Of a DNA stretch of 64,000 bases, positions 2-64,000 are shown in pieces; the first letter of the stretch is position 1; every line of letters begins with the position of its first letter. The stretch is from a virus. Taxonomy: Duplodnaviria > Caudoviricetes. Below the pieces are notes generated by a model. That model was not told the DNA's origin, made no database searches, and saw only the letters and a list, made by a program, of their open reading frames with translations. The stretch spans positions 65,023-129,022 of IMG/VR virus record IMGVR_UViG_3300021426_000071. One strand, written 5' to 3'. A program made the position numbers and the translations under genes.

Positions 2-1438
2 GCGCTTGATCCGCTGAAACAGTTGAGGGATGTAACAAAATCTTCAAGTAGGAGAATTCAGTCTTTAACAAAAGAAAATATTATTACATATCTTCAAAGT
101 CCGATTTCGAACGAGGCCAATCTTAGAAATGCCTCGTTTTATATTTTTTATAGAAATCAGGTTTATCAAAGGTTAATACTATATTTTTCAACACTATTCT
201 GTCTTGAGGCAAGAAGTATTATCCCAAAGTATGACCTGATTAAACCAGATTCTGATGACAAAATTTTAAAATCATTTAATGATACGGCCAAAATGCTTGG
301 TGCGTGGAATATCAATAATGAGTTTTTAAAAGTGATTATCACATGTATGATTCAGGACGTCAGTTATAACTGTGCGTATTATGACGACACTGGGTTATAT
401 TTGCTTCCACTTCCGGCTGATTATTGTAAGATCTATGCCCAGTATCCAGACGGTTCGTTCGCCTTTATGGTAGACATGTCCTATTTTAGAGGAACAAATA
501 ACTGGTTAATCGAAGCGTGGGGCGAACCATTTGCGAGCATGTATAGAGCCTTTGAAACAGAGGGCAATAATGGCAGATGGCAACCAATGCCTGATGAATA
601 CGCTGCGGCTTTCAAATTTAGAAATTATGATTATGAGACCGTTATTCCACCGTTTTCTGGAATTCTCGGGGATATGATCAATCTAAATGACATTTTTGAT
701 AACCAGAAGATCGCTGATGATGCAGAAATATATAAGCTTATATATTTAAAGCTGAAAACTATTACTGGTGCAAAAATGGCCGACGAGTGGGCCGTTGATC
801 CATCGGTCGCTATTGAGTATTTTAGAAGGCTTATTGACGAGGCGCTCCCAGATTATATGTCTGCGGCAATCGTTCCCGGAAATGATGATCTCGGTGTTAT
901 TGACTTTTCAAATACAGATAAGGCTTCTGAAAGTAATAAGGTTCTCAAAGCGACAAAGTCAATTCTTAATACTTCCGGCGGAGCACAGATTTTAAATTCT
1001 GCCGAAATATCTGGAACCACCGCTTTTAATGCCGCAATCAGGGCAGATACGGAATTTGCCATTAGTAGTCTTCTTCCGCAAATTGAGGGATGGTTTAATC
1101 GAATTATAGAGAATGTTGTCTCGAATCCTTCAATTATCAAGTTCTATCATGTAGGCAGATTAACAAGGGATGACTTTAGAAAAGAGATGCTCGAAAATGC
1201 TCAGTACTCTCTTCCTGCAAAATTAGCGATCATGTCTTTGAGTGGACTAGACCCGCTTCATGTCATGTCTCTTAATCATCTTGAAGAGGACATTCTTGAA
1301 CTTGGGGAGAAGTTTAACGATCCGCTTAGATCAAGTTATACCTCCAGTAATTATTACAGAGGCGGCAGACCAGTAAGTGATGATGGTTCTTTGACAGACG
1401 ATGGCGAAGCCAGTCGTGAAAAGACAGATAGGGCATAA
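2..1438 (+). CDS. Phage portal protein (5' end lies outside the window)
   Basis: The frame is open from base 2, so the ORF-track start at 23 is not the true start. Over 470 aa; first gene ahead of the protease/scaffold and capsid; C-terminal GGRP motif is typical of portals. Confidence 0.75.
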   Translation, partial: ALDPLKQLRDVTKSSSRRIQSLTKENIITYLQSPISNEANLRNASFYIFYRNQVYQRLILYFSTLFCLEARSIIPKYDLIKPDSDDKILKSFNDTAKMLGAWNINNEFLKVIITCMIQDVSYNCAYYDDTGLYLLPLPADYCKIYAQYPDGSFAFMVDMSYFRGTNNWLIEAWGEPFASMYRAFETEGNNGRWQPMPDEYAAAFKFRNYDYETVIPPFSGILGDMINLNDIFDNQKIADDAEIYKLIYLKLKTITGAKMADEWAVDPSVAIEYFRRLIDEALPDYMSAAIVPGNDDLGVIDFSNTDKASESNKVLKATKSILNTSGGAQILNSAEISGTTAFNAAIRADTEFAISSLLPQIEGWFNRIIENVVSNPSIIKFYHVGRLTRDDFRKEMLENAQYSLPAKLAIMSLSGLDPLHVMSLNHLEEDILELGEKFNDPLRSSYTSSNYYRGGRPVSDDGSLTDDGEASREKTDRA

Positions 1439-3939: not shown

Positions 3940-4428
3940 ATGGCTTATATGCATATTAACTATAATGTCACGAAACATGGCACTGGTTATCCTGCTAACG
4001 TCAATGCTCAGGAATATGGCGATCATATTCTTAACATTAAGCTTGCTTCAAATACCGACAACGGTATGCTTGTTGCTGCGGACGTGAGCAAGGTTTGGCC
4101 TGAATTTGATGTCTTTGATGAGGCTGCTGTTAATACGTTTGAAGGAATTGTAGAACAGCAGATGCCTGATGGTATGTGGCTTGTGTGCGTAACCGATCCC
4201 GGCGATGCACTTTTTGTTTATCAGAAGCCCCTTACTCCTTATGAGTCTCCGAGAGAACTTACAGAGGAAGATGCTTTCTATAACAAAGCAGGCGACATTG
4301 TTCGTTGCTATTGCCTTAAGAAATTCGACCGTATCGCTGTTTCTGAAGATAACTTCAACGGAACCCCTACAAAGGGTGCTACTATCAGTGGCGTCGAAGA
4401 CAAAAAGATGACCGTAGGGTCTTATTAA
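3940..4428 (+). CDS. Head decoration/capsid stabilising protein (putative)
   Basis: Strong AGGAGG RBS; 162 aa, beta-rich; directly upstream of the major capsid gene; highly biased codon usage. Confidence 0.6.
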   Translation: MAYMHINYNVTKHGTGYPANVNAQEYGDHILNIKLASNTDNGMLVAADVSKVWPEFDVFDEAAVNTFEGIVEQQMPDGMWLVCVTDPGDALFVYQKPLTPYESPRELTEEDAFYNKAGDIVRCYCLKKFDRIAVSEDNFNGTPTKGATISGVEDKKMTVGSY

Positions 4429-50625: not shown

Positions 50626-51228
50626 ATGAATAAGATAAAACGATATATGATTTTAGTTTTAGCCTTATTCTTGCTAGTCTCTGTCCCATCCTCTGCACAG
50701 ACTGCGGAGAGTATTGGAAAGGACTACCCTAGTTTTACAAGGGCTGTCCGCAATAAAAAAATAATTTTATTACGTGTGAGAGTGGGTAAAACCACTCTCA
50801 TTTATGATTCTAAAGTGCCCACGAGAAGGGTCAAAGCGGTTAAGAGGTGGATCAAATTCCTTCCAAGTAATGTTCAGAGGGCATCATCAAAGGTGTATTT
50901 GCTGAGGCACTCCTCCTTTATGAAGACAGGAAGGAAGAAAGATTTGGAAAACGTTCTCGGATATGAAATATTTGAGGACAAAGAGATCTATTTATACTCG
51001 ATGTCTGACTATGAAGAGATGCAATCCACATTGTATCATGAATTTGGCCATGCCTATGATAATCGGACGGGAAAATATCTTAAGTACTCCTCTTCTGCCG
51101 AGTGGCACAAGATTGGCAAGGGTTATGGTAACAGGGCAGAGTATTTCGCCGATTGCTTCGGCGAATACTATTGCTACTTATATACAAAAGAAGCGCGGTT
51201 TATTACTAAAGTTCTCAAATACAAATGA
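50626..51228 (+). CDS. Secreted zinc metalloprotease-like protein (HExxH)
   Basis: Signal peptide (basic, hydrophobic, SSA|Q); LYHEFGHAYD; downstream EYFAD third ligand. Confidence 0.7.
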   Translation: MNKIKRYMILVLALFLLVSVPSSAQTAESIGKDYPSFTRAVRNKKIILLRVRVGKTTLIYDSKVPTRRVKAVKRWIKFLPSNVQRASSKVYLLRHSSFMKTGRKKDLENVLGYEIFEDKEIYLYSMSDYEEMQSTLYHEFGHAYDNRTGKYLKYSSSAEWHKIGKGYGNRAEYFADCFGEYYCYLYTKEARFITKVLKYK

Positions 51229-51761: not shown

Positions 51762-52355
51762 ATGGCAGTTAATACAGAATCTACCACAATTGCAGATCTG
51801 CCGGAGGCAACTAGTCTTACTGATAACGATCTGCTTGTTCTAGAAGCTGGAGGAACTCAAACTAAAAAGACTCTTCTATCCCGCTTGAAGGCATTTATTT
51901 CAAATGGACTTAATCTTACAGGGACACCGACCGCGCCAACCGCTGCTGTCGGAACAAAGACTACTCAAATTGCCACTACGGCTTTTGTAAATAATGCGCA
52001 CCAATGGATTTATGCAAGAGGTCAAGTAACCGTTACCCAAGCGGAATATTACACGATATGTAGTGTAGAACTTCCGGCAAATTCGAGGTTTCTTGTTATG
52101 AGTTGGGTGAAATCTAATGATTCTAAATCATGTCAGATTTTGAATCAGTTGCGTATTGCGTCTGGGGGAGGAGATGACGGCGGGCCAAGCGTCAGCTGTC
52201 CTGCGCGAACCAGCACGACAAATGGAGCAGCCGCAGTAGCATATGGTATTTACACCGTAGGCAGTGCTGCAATGAGAGTAGAACTAAGGTGCTATGGCTA
52301 CGATACGGCTACGCACACAGAAGACGGAAGAATTGACGCTTTTAGAATTGGATGA
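51762..52355 (+). CDS. Short tail fibre-like protein
   Basis: LTGTPTAPTA...TTQIATTAFV fibre motif; N-terminal IADLP module. Confidence 0.7.
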   Translation: MAVNTESTTIADLPEATSLTDNDLLVLEAGGTQTKKTLLSRLKAFISNGLNLTGTPTAPTAAVGTKTTQIATTAFVNNAHQWIYARGQVTVTQAEYYTICSVELPANSRFLVMSWVKSNDSKSCQILNQLRIASGGGDDGGPSVSCPARTSTTNGAAAVAYGIYTVGSAAMRVELRCYGYDTATHTEDGRIDAFRIG

Positions 52356-60972: not shown

Positions 60973-62133
60973 TTAATGATATTTTAGTAAGTATTCGTTA
61001 GATACTGCTTTAAATGATTTTGTCGCATCTTGAGATCTTAACACTACTCCTTCTCTCATCCCTCCATCGTATACAGATTTGCCAGTCGCATACTCAAGTA
61101 ATTCATCAACCGTATCTGGAAGAATAAAGTTCGTATCTATAATCGGAACACATGGCAGATGATAATCCATTTCAAGTATATCCTTCATAACGATTGAATT
61201 AACTCGTCCACTATCAGAGAAGATCAAGTTAAATGCTGCGAAACAATGTTCTTTCTTATCATATGTGCGCTTTTGTATTCCTTGACCGAAGATCTCGCCC
61301 TGAATCGTAACCCATTCTGCTCCCGGATGTTTCTCGAGAAGATCTCCAAGTATCTCACGCATGTTATACTTCTTTGCGATCTCCCAATAGACGTTTGTGT
61401 TGTAGTAGGCTCGCTGATTCTCGTCCTCCTGTACAACATTTCTGCTACACACATAAAAATCGGATTTGGCAAATAAGCCATGTCCACGCTTTAAAGAATA
61501 GGTTCCACTCGTTCCGTCGATCTTCTCCGTGACAATATAAGGCGTTTTATCCTCGAGCATCCACGGAGCGTTTTGACAGCGGGTTTCGTCAGTCTTAACC
61601 ACCCATTCAGGCCAGCCATTCTTCCGATCCTTCTTTCTGCCGAAGAATAGGAACATTAGCTTCTTTCCCCAGCTACGACGCATCATCCATCTCGCCCACG
61701 GCTGTTTAAAAATAATCGGATGCCGTTTTGACATTTGTTTATATTTATCTACCGAAGGGGCTTTTCTGATATTGTCTTCTGGTTCGTAATAAGTAATTCC
61801 CAAGAGATCCGTGACTCCCTGACCTTCTTTAAAGTCAGCCGGATTTAAACCAAGATCCTCAAATGACATCAACAATCCTTGAGATAACACAGTGCCTTTA
61901 AAATACTTCTGTGTTTTTACTCTATAACCTTTCGACTCTAAAAATTTAAATGATTCTGTTGCTGGTGTCTTCGAATCAATTTCGATATAGACAGCAAGAT
62001 CTCCTACTTTAAATTGATCCTTACGAACCATAACATGCCACCCAAGTACAGTGGCGTATTCAACCCTATCCGCGCCTTGTATTGGGCTGATCGATATTAT
62101 CTTTTCGACATGTGCCAATTCTCTATTGCTCAT
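60973..62133 (-). CDS. RNA ligase (DRB0094/Rnl2-like) with an N-terminal tRNA-binding-type OB fold
   Basis: Nucleotidyltransferase motifs TEKIDGT (I), QGEIFG (III), FNL (IIIa), REGVV (IV), SFKAVS (V); N-terminal PI-x-GAD...G-x-x-SQG OB fold. Confidence 0.85.
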   Translation of the reverse strand: MSNRELAHVEKIISISPIQGADRVEYATVLGWHVMVRKDQFKVGDLAVYIEIDSKTPATESFKFLESKGYRVKTQKYFKGTVLSQGLLMSFEDLGLNPADFKEGQGVTDLLGITYYEPEDNIRKAPSVDKYKQMSKRHPIIFKQPWARWMMRRSWGKKLMFLFFGRKKDRKNGWPEWVVKTDETRCQNAPWMLEDKTPYIVTEKIDGTSGTYSLKRGHGLFAKSDFYVCSRNVVQEDENQRAYYNTNVYWEIAKKYNMREILGDLLEKHPGAEWVTIQGEIFGQGIQKRTYDKKEHCFAAFNLIFSDSGRVNSIVMKDILEMDYHLPCVPIIDTNFILPDTVDELLEYATGKSVYDGGMREGVVLRSQDATKSFKAVSNEYLLKYH

Positions 62134-62296
62134 TTCTAATCTTGTCGCCCTCCTCTATTGGTTCGAAACATAAGCTGATATCATTCTCGTCAAATAACGT
62201 ATATGTTTGCCGCCTTCTATATGGTATTGCCATAAATCTATAGCATTCTTTCTTCTTATCGCATCTCTCATTTCTGCACATCGAAATATCTGGCAT
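62123..62296 (-). CDS. Small Cys-containing protein (57 aa, not in the ORF track)
   Basis: MPDISMCRNERCDKKKECYRF... fills the gap and overlaps both neighbours; GAGGAGG upstream. Confidence 0.55.
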   Translation of the reverse strand: MPDISMCRNERCDKKKECYRFMAIPYRRRQTYTLFDENDISLCFEPIEEGDKIRNEQ

Positions 62297-62525
62297 CGAA
62301 CGGACTCAGCACCTCCTCAAACTCCGCGACTTTATTCTCGTTATCCGTAATGATTGTCGCATTAATATTTGGCGATACGCTTATCATTGAAACTCCCATG
62401 ATACTCTTGCCGTTTACAATATACCGCCCATCGGTTACGTCTATCTCCTCTGAGAATTGTTCGCACAGGCGGACAAACTGTGCGATCTCCTTCATGTTTT
62501 CAAATTTTACCCTCAATATCCTCAC
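62268..62525 (-). CDS. HPr-family protein lacking His15
   Basis: FV-x-x-C-x-x-F...GRY-x-V-N-G-K-S-I-M-G (Ser46 motif); the protein contains no His; AAGGAG RBS. Confidence 0.8.
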   Translation of the reverse strand: MRILRVKFENMKEIAQFVRLCEQFSEEIDVTDGRYIVNGKSIMGVSMISVSPNINATIITDNENKVAEFEEVLSPFDARYFDVQK

Positions 62526-62548: not shown

Positions 62549-62606
62549 AATCCGAGGTCGGATTCGAACCGACATTGAGATGTTTTACCAGTTAAACTAC
62601 TCGGAC
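62549..62606 (-). ncRNA. tRNA-like RNA lacking the anticodon arm (58 nt)
   Basis: GTCCGAG-TA-GTTT AACTGGTA AAAC-ATCTCAAT-GTCGG TTCGAAT CCGAC-CTCGGAT-T. Confidence 0.75.
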
Positions 62607-62609
62607 TCT

Positions 62610-62661
62610 GACGGGCATAGATAGGGTAAATTGCAGAAAGGGAGGTAACGTTTCGCCCGCC
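62610..62661 (-). ncRNA. Hairpin sRNA candidate with an anti-SD loop
   Basis: Stem GGCGGGCG/TGCCCGTC; the 36-nt loop contains ACCTCCCTTTCT. Confidence 0.5.
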
Positions 62662-62682
62662 TCAAATAAATGAAAGACTTAA

Positions 62683-62756
62683 CCTGAGTAGTGCGATTCG
62701 AACGCACGACCTCCTGATCCCAAATCAGGCGCTCTACCAAACTGAGCCATACTCAG
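62683..62756 (-). tRNA. tRNA-Pro(TGG)
   Basis: Full cloverleaf: CTGAGTA/TACTCAG, GCTC/GAGC, CCTGA-TTTGGGA-TCAGG, GTGCG-TTCGAAT-CGCAC; no encoded CCA. Confidence 0.9.
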
Positions 62757-62758
62757 AT

Positions 62759-62822
62759 AGGGACGAGGGGACTTGAATTCGGCTTATAAGGCCGCTGCGC
62801 TAACCTATTGTGCCACATCCCA
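62759..62822 (-). pseudogene. tRNA-Ile(TAT)-like sequence missing the variable loop and 5' T-stem
   Basis: Acceptor GGGATG/CGTCCC, D-arm and CGGC-CTTATAA-GCCG are present, then the sequence jumps to AATTCAAGTCCCCT. Confidence 0.6.
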
Positions 62823-62894
62823 TTGTACGGCGAGGATTCGAACCTCGGACTCCCTCTTTCGCGAGGGCGTTTATCTCCGCTAAACTACCGTACT
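62823..62894 (-). ncRNA. tRNA-like RNA with a non-decoding 6-nt anticodon loop (GCGAAA)
   Basis: All four stems are intact; loop CCCTC-GCGAAA-GAGGG has no U33; A1.A72 mismatch. Confidence 0.7.
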
Positions 62895-62896
62895 AC

Positions 62897-62992
62897 TTGC
62901 CACTATACTCTTCCGCCTGTAATAGGTTGATCAAACCTACCCCATCCTACACTCTTGCTAAGCCGCTCCTCAGCAGTACCATTTAGTGACAA
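62897..62992 (-). ncRNA. Unclassified structured RNA
   Basis: Closing stem TTGTCACTA/TAGTGGCAA; inner hairpins TGCTGAG/CTTAGCA and GTAGGTT/AACCTAT. Confidence 0.5.
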
Positions 62993-62993
62993 A

Positions 62994-63102
62994 AGTCGGA
63001 GACTACTTTCCGCCGCTTCCGCGTCCGGCTTCTTCGGATTACGGTGTCGCATCCGACGAGGATATTTCCTCCCAACGGTTAGGCTTTCACTTATCTCCGA
63101 CT
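62994..63102 (-). ncRNA. Unclassified multibranch structured RNA
   Basis: Closing stem AGTCGGAGA/TCTCCGACT; inner helices GAGGA/TCCTC, GTCG/CGAC, TCCG/CGGA, CCGTT/AGCGG. Confidence 0.55.
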
Positions 63103-63104
63103 AA

Positions 63105-63177
63105 TTGCGGGAGCAGGATTCGAACCTGCGACTTCCAGCTTATGGGGCTGGCTTTCTGACCTCTGAATTATCCCGCT
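63105..63177 (-). tRNA. Atypical tRNA-Met(CAT) with an initiator-like body
   Basis: AGCGGGA/TCCCGCA-A acceptor with a 1:72 mismatch; T-arm GCAGG-TTCGAAT-CCTGC; anticodon arm CCAGC-CCCATAA-GCTGG has C33 and no 3 G-C pairs. Confidence 0.7.
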
Positions 63178-63190
63178 ATGTACTGGCGTA

Positions 63191-63262
63191 GCCCCAGTAG
63201 CAGATTCGAACTGCATCGCCGGACTACAATTCCGGTGCTCTAACCTATTGAGCTAACCGGGG
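63191..63262 (-). tRNA. Atypical tRNA-Thr(TGT)-like RNA with an extended flanking helix
   Basis: Cloverleaf with loop ATTGTAG (A32, G38) and a 3-nt variable loop; the flanks pair (63183-63189 with 63263-63269). Confidence 0.5.
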
Positions 63263-63271
63263 ACGCCAGAA

Positions 63272-63387
63272 CGGGAGCAGAAGGATTCGAACCTTCGTTT
63301 TCTGATTGATGGATATCAGACTGTTGCCAATTGACATACTCTAACAAGCACATCACGCTTGTACCCTTTGTCTACACTTACACTCCC
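63272..63387 (-). ncRNA. tRNA-like RNA with an expanded D region and aberrant anticodon loop
   Basis: Acceptor GGGAGTG/TGCTCCC; T-arm GAAGG-TTCGAAT-CCTTC; TCTGAT/ATCAGA stem with an 8-nt loop; extra hairpin ACAAGCG/TGCTTGT. Confidence 0.5.
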
Positions 63388-63391
63388 ATAT

Positions 63392-63452
63392 GACTGGCGG
63401 GAATCTTGGCGCCTCATCGATTCCACTTTAAGCGCTCATTAGCGCACCAGTC
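63392..63452 (-). ncRNA. Small three-way-junction RNA
   Basis: GACTGGT/GCCAGTC closes GCGCT-AATG-AGCGC and GGAATC/GATTCC. Confidence 0.45.
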
Positions 63453-63504
63453 TATGCATGTTACTCATCCGCAGAACAACCACCACTCGCGTTCTGCCAT
63501 GCGC

Positions 63505-63605
63505 TTATGTGGGCAAGGACTTGCACCTTACATGGCTTGCTACCCATATTAGTTCGTTCACAGCCTCACTTCTCGTATTAGCGTCTACTGTTCCGCCACC
63601 ACATA
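63505..63605 (-). ncRNA. Leu/Tyr-type tRNA-like RNA with a replaced anticodon arm and TGCAAGT T-loop
   Basis: TATGTGG/CCACATA acceptor; GCG-GAACAGTAGA-CGC D-arm; GTAAGG-TGCAAGT-CCTTGC T-arm; ~48-nt non-anticodon insert. Confidence 0.6.
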
Positions 63606-63658
63606 ACGTAGTCTTTCCCACTGTCAGACAAATTCCTCCATTCTTGCACTGAATGGAA

Positions 63659-63719
63659 TTGGGACGATTGGATTTGAACCAATGACACAATTTCCTCTAG
63701 CCAACTGAGTTACGTCCCG
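63659..63719 (-). ncRNA. Second tRNA-like RNA lacking the anticodon arm (61 nt)
   Basis: CGGGACG-TA-ACTC AGTTGGCTA GAGG-AAATTGTGTC-ATTGG TTCAAAT CCAAT-CGTCCCA-A. Confidence 0.75.
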
Positions 63720-63738
63720 ATATGCACCGTATCCCCAA

Positions 63739-63894
63739 AGGTGCGCCCTACTTCCGTATTGCCAGACCGCTGCGTTTTCGGATTTCTCACTCGACTGGCT
63801 TTCTGGATGCCAACAGGAGGAGGATTCGTTTGTTTCCGCTATGCACCTTCCACAGATACGTCTGCTCGGAATTATTGGAAGTTACGGCGCACCT
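63739..63894 (-). ncRNA. ~156-nt structured RNA with an internal TCCTCCTCCT anti-SD tract
   Basis: Closing helices AGGTGCGCC/GGCGCACCT and ACTTCC/GGAAGT. Confidence 0.5.
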
Positions 63895-63970
63895 CATACG
63901 CCGATGCGATTAACGGAGATTCAGGATAACTGCAAACCTCTCTGGTTTAGCGTGGGAAGATACCACGGCA

Positions 63971-64000
63971 TCGGAACGGCGGGACTCGAACCTACACATC
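63971..64000 (-). tRNA. 3' end of a tRNA or tRNA-like gene cut by the window edge
   Basis: GTAGG-TTCGAGT-CCCGC T-arm followed by CGTTCCG-A. Confidence 0.55.

Follow-up and report, generated by a model that had tools for sequence, protein, structure and literature searches.

A phage array of tRNA-framed RNAs whose units may serve as punctuation and chassis

The window analysed here is a 64,000-nucleotide (nt) stretch of DNA from a Caudoviricetes virus (positions 65,023 to 129,022 of IMG/VR record IMGVR_UViG_3300021426_000071). At its end, on the minus strand, lies an array of transfer RNA (tRNA)-shaped units and other structured RNAs. Here, we describe the anatomy of this array and its conservation in related phages. 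We argue that, on balance, the locus would best be understood as one long RNA operon, in which a few decoding tRNAs are mixed with tRNA-framed RNAs without a usable anticodon and in which the tRNA fold would serve both as punctuation and as chassis. Coordinates without a prefix refer to the window, and those marked 'contig' to the full 129,022-bp record, of which the window is the second half. Loci fetched for comparison carry L numbers, L001 being the own-genome locus that holds the contig start.

Results

Extent of the array

The array, about 2.7 kb long in total, extends past the end of the window. Read as transcribed, it goes from contig ~1276 to contig 1 and then, within the window, from 63993 to 62549. 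The two ends of the record share 126 bp (window 63868-64000 against contig 1-133), with a disagreement in the final seven bases of the window, which we take from this overlap to be an assembly-end artefact. Because of the shared ends, the record, listed as 'linear, 72% complete', is probably a molecule that closes into a circle of 128,889 bp. Beyond the junction, in contig 1-1276, lie a tRNA-Gln and at least three further aberrant units, so that the extent of 62549-64000 given in a preliminary description of this DNA was too short.

Anatomy of the tRNA-shaped units

Units were identified with the Rfam tRNA model (RF00005, gathering score 29 bits), with ARAGORN as a second caller and with the covariance models of Rfam 15. 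The tRNA model finds eight minus-strand units in 62549-64000, the number counted in the preliminary description; seven of them score above 29 bits, and two more lie across the junction. In the whole genome, there are nine matches at 29.3-67.6 bits, one at 22.5 bits and one 12.7-bit fragment. ARAGORN accepts only the Pro, Met, Thr and Gln units, plus one to which it assigns a 2-nt 'anticodon'.

Few of these units appear able to decode. An anticodon stem of 5 bp that carries a 7-nt loop with U33 and a readable anticodon is found only in Pro, Thr and Gln. tRNA-Pro(UGG) (62683-62756; 67.6 bits) is canonical, and tRNA-Thr(UGU) (63191-63262; 47.5 bits) is near canonical with a short T stem. Pro had earlier been taken as the only canonical unit, which overstates the case, as Thr is essentially canonical and Gln, beyond the window, looks functional. 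All three look decodable, as perhaps does the tRNA-Met(CAU)-like unit (63105-63177; 55.2 bits), which has C33 and an A1:A72 mismatch and so falls outside the strict definition. The same definition leaves out 62549-62606 and 63659-63719, both without an anticodon arm, as well as 62823-62894 and the two larger RNAs that we call family C and family D.

The two units without an anticodon arm are the smallest. In 62549-62606 (58 nt; 43.9 bits), 3 unaligned nt replace the 17-position anticodon region, and in 63659-63719 (61 nt; 38 bits), 2 unaligned nt replace a region of 15 positions. In the fold of both, the acceptor stem has 7 bp, the D arm contains GG and the T arm is canonical. The former is the final element of the array, ~25-35 nt upstream of the start of an open reading frame (ORF) for an HPr-like protein, and in its D and T arms it shares 85% identity with a portion of a double-elbow unit in L015. 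In that unit (L015 7591-7710), a permuted module of T arm, closed stem and D arm sits within an outer acceptor stem and D arm, and a second T arm follows the module.

Other units are distorted in different ways. The unit at 62823-62894 (38.5 bits), the one with the 2-nt 'anticodon', has a capped 6-nt anticodon loop and is lineage-specific, its sole match elsewhere being a weak one to an ordinary tRNA. The tRNA-Ile(UAU)-like unit at 62758-62822 (29.3 bits) has an intact CUUAUAA loop, and 7 nt replace its 15-position T arm; an intact counterpart of this tRNA type occurs in relatives (L025). The latter unit is possibly a decaying copy, and the former may be one as well. Thus, the earlier impression of damage aimed at the anticodon arm is borne out by the two units that lack the arm and by others in which it is distorted, but not by 62758-62822, where the loop is intact and the T arm is truncated instead. 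Family C, of which the 3' part lies in the window at 63971-64000 and the full unit at contig 104-182 (46.5 bits on L001 104-182), has a 19-nt loop on a 4-bp stem at the anticodon position.

RNA families between the units

Two of the spacers, IV1 (contig 183-530) and IV3 (63346-63658), align with each other as paralogous composites made up of a 5' hairpin with a leader, a family A RNA and a motif that we call module B. The hairpin and leader (63608-63658), which are found in nine viral contigs, begin directly after the discriminator base of the upstream unit here and 0-4 nt after one across loci. Family A (63505-63607) is itself framed as a tRNA. Its acceptor stem has 8 bp, its D arm is Leu-like, and the loop of its T arm reads UGCAAGU here and UGCAAAU in most members. 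The anticodon and variable arms give way to a middle domain, of which about 30 versions, 31-160 nt long, are found across loci. The acceptor stem varies while remaining paired: 12 distinct, fully complementary 8-bp acceptor pairs occur across loci, each followed by the same D arm (the underlying table has 13 rows, one of them sharing its 5' strand and containing a G:U). Likenesses of the composite to RNase P RNA, group I introns, cobalamin and ZTP riboswitches, twister and hammerhead ribozymes were considered and rejected, as none gave an Rfam match.

Module B is a 62-nt three-way junction, present in exactly two copies in this genome according to its covariance model (R1); copy 2, at 63392-63453, scores 68.6 bits. 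In an alignment of 42 distinct sequences (A2), 98.6% of the cells are paired across the three helices, and double compensatory changes are seen in 10 of 18 pairs, values that none of 500 shuffles reached. The motif occurs at 38 metagenome and 21 viral loci. Here it stops 3 nt before family D, and in 25 of the 42 contexts only 3-7 nt separate it from the 5' end of a tRNA or tRNA-framed unit. Elsewhere its successor may be family C, family D, a tRNA-Gln or tRNA-Ile of the ordinary kind, or another RNA, the order being shuffled.

Family D (63272-63388) is an RNA of 117 nt in the tRNA frame. Its outer acceptor stem and T arm are accompanied by extra hairpins, and the loop at the anticodon position has 8 nt; it had earlier been drawn as a unit at 63272-63345, which misses the outer stem. 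It is 90.6-95% identical in eight other contigs, with compensatory changes in 8 of 30 consensus pairs. The family D motif had no match in the GTDB species genomes. GenBank phages gave matches to ordinary tRNAs only.

Family G (spacer IV2; 63720-63970, 251 nt) has a consensus fold and is 78-93% identical in L065, L043/L068 and L035. Its conserved parts, ~45 nt on the 5' side and ~110 nt on the 3' side, flank a variable middle, and a tRNA-like unit follows immediately. The 3' part (63755-63865, minus strand) contains the invariant sequence AUCCUCCUCC, which resembles the anti-Shine-Dalgarno end of 16S ribosomal RNA; that it pairs with ribosome-binding sites is pure speculation. In a search for antisense targets, the longest complementarity between array RNAs and the rest of the genome was 13-14 nt, which is at chance level; a complementarity of 16 nt falls in the ribosome-binding region beyond the last unit.

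The remaining spacers are less telling. IV4 (62895-63104, 210 nt) is predicted to form two stem-closed domains, with a minimum free energy (MFE) of -69.8 kcal/mol (z ~ -3.1 against mononucleotide shuffles), and IV5 (62607-62682, 76 nt) is no more structured than its shuffles (MFE z ~ -0.6). No homologue of either was found in the 78 fetched loci or in five related phage records. The array does hold at least two structured RNAs that are not tRNAs, module B and family G, as the preliminary description proposed for the spacers; IV3 turns out to contain a tRNA-framed RNA, and IV5 lacks support for structure. When Rfam 15 was scanned at permissive E-values, the array and its relatives gave matches to tRNA and matches at chance level only, so that tRNA is the one Rfam family represented. 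Nothing in the array was assigned by Rfam 15 to GOLLD, ROOL, a riboswitch or a self-cleaving ribozyme family. In a relative, L025 13592-13660 matches the type II hammerhead ribozyme at 38.7 bits (gathering score 37), and the same contig carries families A, C and D.

Conservation in related phages

About 60 contigs, from uncultivated phages or from metagenomes, hold relatives of families A, B, D and G and of the anticodon-less unit 63659-63719, in which compensatory base changes are seen. Because of this recurrence, the view that they are selected RNAs rather than decayed tRNAs is supported by comparison of the sequences. Homologues of 63659-63719 in L030, L050 and L076 have the same D arm and the same linker GGAAATTGTGTC, and their T and acceptor stems covary; the deletion of the anticodon arm in this family is therefore old and maintained. 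Intact tRNAs were not seen at these places in relatives, which carry the same aberrant forms instead. In family C, the acceptor sequence is nearly invariant across phages and the middle varies. That selection rather than decay shaped the units, as was suggested before, thus holds for most of them, given the compensatory changes in acceptor and T stems shared with relatives, and does not extend to 62823-62894 and 62758-62822.

Two further observations concern the surroundings of module B in relatives. In L052 (~4121-4259), right after module B, a mini-tRNA of ~63 nt interrupts the anticodon loop of a tRNA-Ile(UAU)-like gene; the mini-tRNA has an acceptor stem (7 bp) and a T arm of its own, which makes this a tRNA within a tRNA. 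The commonest cluster of neighbours of module B elsewhere (10 loci) includes a stand-alone 123-residue NAD-binding Ia domain of NAD-dependent DNA ligase (PF22745; the member from L031, the only one scanned, gives E 8e-28). The gene for this domain sits just downstream of module B and tRNA-Gln in L031, L033, L037, L045, L046, L047 and others; the array described here has no such neighbour.

Flanking signatures of the units

The units share features of their flanks whether or not they can decode. In the array itself, position 74 is T in 12 of 13 units with a tRNA frame, position -1 is T in 8 of 13, and CCA is encoded in none. Gaps between abutting units are 0, 1, 4, 8 and 13 nt. Among 168 distinct units from related loci, CCA is again encoded in none; T is found at position 74 in 54-67% and at position 75 in 63-82%, against a T background of 30%, and these values are alike in the canonical, inserted and long classes. 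T at position -1 is likewise enriched equally in canonical-length, inserted and long units of this set.

The placement of the minimal units is also shared. They lie between RNAs other than tRNA or beside messenger RNA (mRNA), both here and in L030, L050 and L076. Elsewhere in this genome, two elements made of an acceptor stem and a T arm without an anticodon arm (contig 50976-51049 and 51801-51849, minus strand; L081 1477-1550 and 2302-2350) bracket an ORF of 224 residues. The ~350 nt upstream of the element at contig 50976-51049 hold no long ORF.

A consensus scan found a perfect sigma-70 promoter (TTGACA-17-TATAAT) at contig 2502-2474 on the minus strand, upstream of two ORFs that precede the array, contig 1799-2428 ('tail fiber' in PHROGs) and contig 1277-1786 (DUF6847). 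A terminator scan gave no convincing minus-strand terminator inside the array. Judging by these two scans alone, the array is probably co-transcribed.

Neighbouring genes

Between the DUF6847 gene and tRNA-Gln there is a 670-nt AT-rich non-coding stretch (contig 603-1276, minus strand, L001), with no homologue in the 78 fetched loci or the five related phage records. It holds a minihelix of 41 nt at contig 712-752, composed of a 7-bp stem, a 9-nt linker and a T arm.

Downstream, the first gene is the HPr-like ORF (62268-62525, minus strand, 85 residues; Pfam PTS-HPr, 31 bits, E 2.7e-07), which has no relatives in viral contigs; an ORF of 57 residues and an RNA ligase gene also lie downstream. 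The ligase gene, correctly placed on the same strand by the preliminary description, occupies 60973-62133 and is predicted to encode N-terminal OB and nucleotidyltransferase domains (PF21189, E 4e-23; PF09414, E 3e-19). It also matches phrog_968, and its best relative of solved structure is the Naegleria gruberi RNA ligase (PDB: 5cot, E 1e-25). By these matches the enzyme is of the Naegleria-type family, related to the N. gruberi and Deinococcus enzymes. We take this family to be the one named Rnl5, and presumably the enzyme seals nicks between 3'-OH and 5'-phosphate ends. In none of 10 relatives fetched through the ligase does such an array lie beside it. A tyrosine-integrase gene (PF00589; 57509-58780, minus strand) is found 2.2 kb downstream of the ligase, and the phage may for this reason be temperate.

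Discussion

The array combines units that look like working tRNAs with units that keep the tRNA elbow and acceptor stem around something else. That no unit encodes CCA, that T is enriched at positions 74, 75 and -1, that the gaps are short, that the minimal units stand where they do and that two further elements bracket an ORF together point to the ordinary tRNA maturation pathway. Minihelices consisting of an acceptor stem and a T arm are known substrates of bacterial RNase P, RNase Z and CCA-adding enzymes. Since these enzymes accept such substrates, we consider punctuation in the manner of the t-elements of plant mitochondria, together with use of the tRNA as a chassis, to be the best reading of the locus, and we hold it with somewhat more belief than doubt. 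A t-element is an acceptor and T-arm fold at the border of another RNA in a longer transcript, and this is what the minimal units present, the longer transcript being the probable one discussed above.

We propose that RNase P, RNase Z and the CCA-adding enzyme of the host would recognise the acceptor, T-arm and elbow frame of every unit, canonical or aberrant; a CCA-adding enzyme was not found in the phage genome. The precursor would be cut at the 5' end of each unit and past its discriminator base. The minimal units, 62549-62606 and 63659-63719, would act chiefly as punctuation, like t-elements: they would free the structured RNAs that flank them and part the array from the downstream mRNA, which contains the HPr-like ORF, the small ORF and the RNA ligase. 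In the larger units (families A, C, D and E), the tRNA frame would be a stable, processable chassis for a middle 'cargo' that is variable or conserved. The preliminary description had already suggested that the units might be processing signals, and the anatomy agrees with this (gaps of 0-13 nt, no CCA, U at positions 74, 75 and -1, a single promoter); cleavage, CCA addition, the stability of the products and any function in trans are what we infer from these patterns.

Several observations weigh against this proposal, at least in its simplest form. Pure punctuation explains neither the strong conservation inside family D and module B nor the hypervariable middles of families A and C, which have often grown instead of being lost. 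Module B, only 3-7 nt upstream of the presumed RNase P site, might hinder cleavage rather than help it. The units at 62823-62894 and 62758-62822 and the spacers IV4 and IV5 are without conserved counterparts, so that part of the array may be evolutionary debris. In addition, the promoter and terminator scans behind the single transcript are matches to consensus only.

One alternative, which the preliminary description raised with tRNA-targeting defence enzymes in mind, is that the units are decoys or sponges. Processed and CCA-tailed, the anticodon-less units would accumulate and tie up a factor that senses nothing but the acceptor end or elbow; candidates are defence toxins that attack the 3' ends of tRNAs, or host RNase P, CCA-adding enzyme, EF-Tu or modification enzymes. 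The pattern of conservation is what a decoy would need, as the acceptor stem, the GG of the D-loop and the T loop are kept under selection and the anticodon is dispensable; the acceptor of family C is near-invariant while its middle varies, and the hypervariable middles of families A and C resemble the variation of an arms race. On the other hand, no defence or anti-defence gene is linked to the array and a binding partner did not emerge, units without an anticodon could not lure enzymes that read it, and the minimal units lie exactly at borders between two RNAs or between RNA and mRNA, which punctuation explains better. We therefore regard decoys as a minority possibility, compatible with punctuation and chassis rather than exclusive of them.

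It is also conceivable, if improbable, that the array feeds the RNA ligase. The chemistry is coherent: RNase P and RNase Z would generate 3'-OH and 5'-phosphate ends, which the ligase could use to circularise RNAs closed by a stem, such as module B, or to splice the segments that flank a unit; the same logic has been proposed for tRNA-shaped introns in related phages. The ligase gene shares the strand of the array and is ~415 nt downstream of it, an AAA_33-type kinase that could heal ends was not found in the genome, and the P1 stem of module B brings its two ends together. The tRNA-Ile-like gene of L052, interrupted in its anticodon loop by a mini-tRNA, also fits this reading, and Devoto et al. 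(2019, PMC6784885) describe a phage tRNA intron that possibly itself encodes a tRNA. However, no interrupted tRNA was found in the genome studied here, and the ligase is neither syntenic with such arrays in other phages nor among the recurrent neighbours of module B. A wider scheme, to which we give slightly less credence still, would have the units excise and punctuate for the co-transcribed ligase, which would yield circular or spliced forms of module B and families A and G and, in relatives, remove tRNA-shaped introns; the hypervariable middles would then be the specificity parts of undescribed effector RNAs.

That the array is a decaying tRNA island, with aberrant units as pseudogenes of a once-normal cluster and spacers as junk, we consider highly improbable. 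The resemblance of 62758-62822 to a truncated form of the tRNA-Ile(UAU) that is intact in relatives would fit decay, as would the want of conserved counterparts of 62823-62894, IV4 and IV5, and for these four elements decay may be tenable. For most of the array it is contradicted by covariation: families A, B, C, D and G and the anticodon-less unit are conserved over ~60 contigs with compensatory changes, and the deletions are common to diverged phages and are not private lesions.

Equally remote is a role as scaffolds of the Y-RNA kind, in which tRNA-like modules recruit a protein of the Ro60 type as YrlA does, which we reject for this genome: the weak YrlA matches (24.2 bits at contig 159-214 and 33 bits in L015) are far below the gathering score of 69 bits (RF02553), the own-genome match spans two adjacent tandem units, a known context for false positives (PMC4201824), and genes for TROVE, DUF2828 and Band_7 are absent from the 129-kb record (PF05731, PF11443 and PF01145). 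DUF2828/DUF7788 proteins, which recur near module B in five other loci, would speak for such a role elsewhere if they are related to Ro60/TROVE.

If punctuation and chassis is the right reading, phages would use the tRNA-maturation enzymes of their hosts as a general system for RNA processing, a parallel in bacterial viruses to tRNA punctuation in organelles, and a whole range of non-coding RNAs would have been built on the tRNA fold as their chassis. Apart from this reading, at least five conserved RNA families (A, B, C/anticodon-less, D and G), found in dozens of uncultivated phage contigs, lie outside Rfam, among them module B as a well-supported new three-way-junction motif. The array offers clonable candidates for new phage RNAs with regulatory or counter-defence roles. 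It is also a warning for annotation, as 'pseudo-tRNAs' in phage islands may be functional.

We found no published description of such arrays in the literature, and comparison with known systems shows which parts are familiar. The tRNA cluster of phage T4 includes small stable RNAs. Like this and other ordinary phage tRNA clusters, the array is tightly packed and co-oriented, encodes no CCA and places stable RNAs other than tRNAs in what would be one transcription unit; it differs in that most of its units cannot decode and in that the RNAs A, B, D and G match no Rfam family.

The structured non-coding RNAs GOLLD and ROOL (Weinberg et al. 2017, PMC5737381), whose function is unknown, also lie beside tRNAs in phages and prophages, and some were first seen in rumen data. 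The RNAs of the array have no Rfam match to them, are smaller and modular, and change order between phages. YrlA Y RNAs (RF02553; Chen et al. 2014, PMC4201824) are non-coding mimics of the tRNA elbow that are recognised by tRNA enzymes, and L015 has a permuted module that is YrlA-like. In contrast, the units described here have open, unpermuted acceptor stems, lack the Ro-binding stem, score below threshold and come from a genome without a Ro60 gene. The tRNA introns of Lak megaphages (Devoto et al. 2019, PMC6784885) show that tRNA loci of gut phages can contain unusual tRNA-shaped sequences, and the nested mini-tRNA of L052 is of this kind; the tRNA-shaped units in the window stand between RNAs and not within a tRNA.

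The closest likeness is to t-elements, which are documented as processing signals in plant mitochondria (Forner et al. 2007, PMC1920247). These are non-decoding folds of an acceptor stem and a T arm that lie at the borders of RNAs in polycistronic transcripts and are thought to direct cuts by RNase P and RNase Z, and the minimal units of the phage are placed alike. t-elements are organellar, whereas the array belongs to a phage and its processing is predicted from sequence, and several of its units have conserved or hypervariable middle domains. Such middles imply a function beyond that of a cleavage signal.

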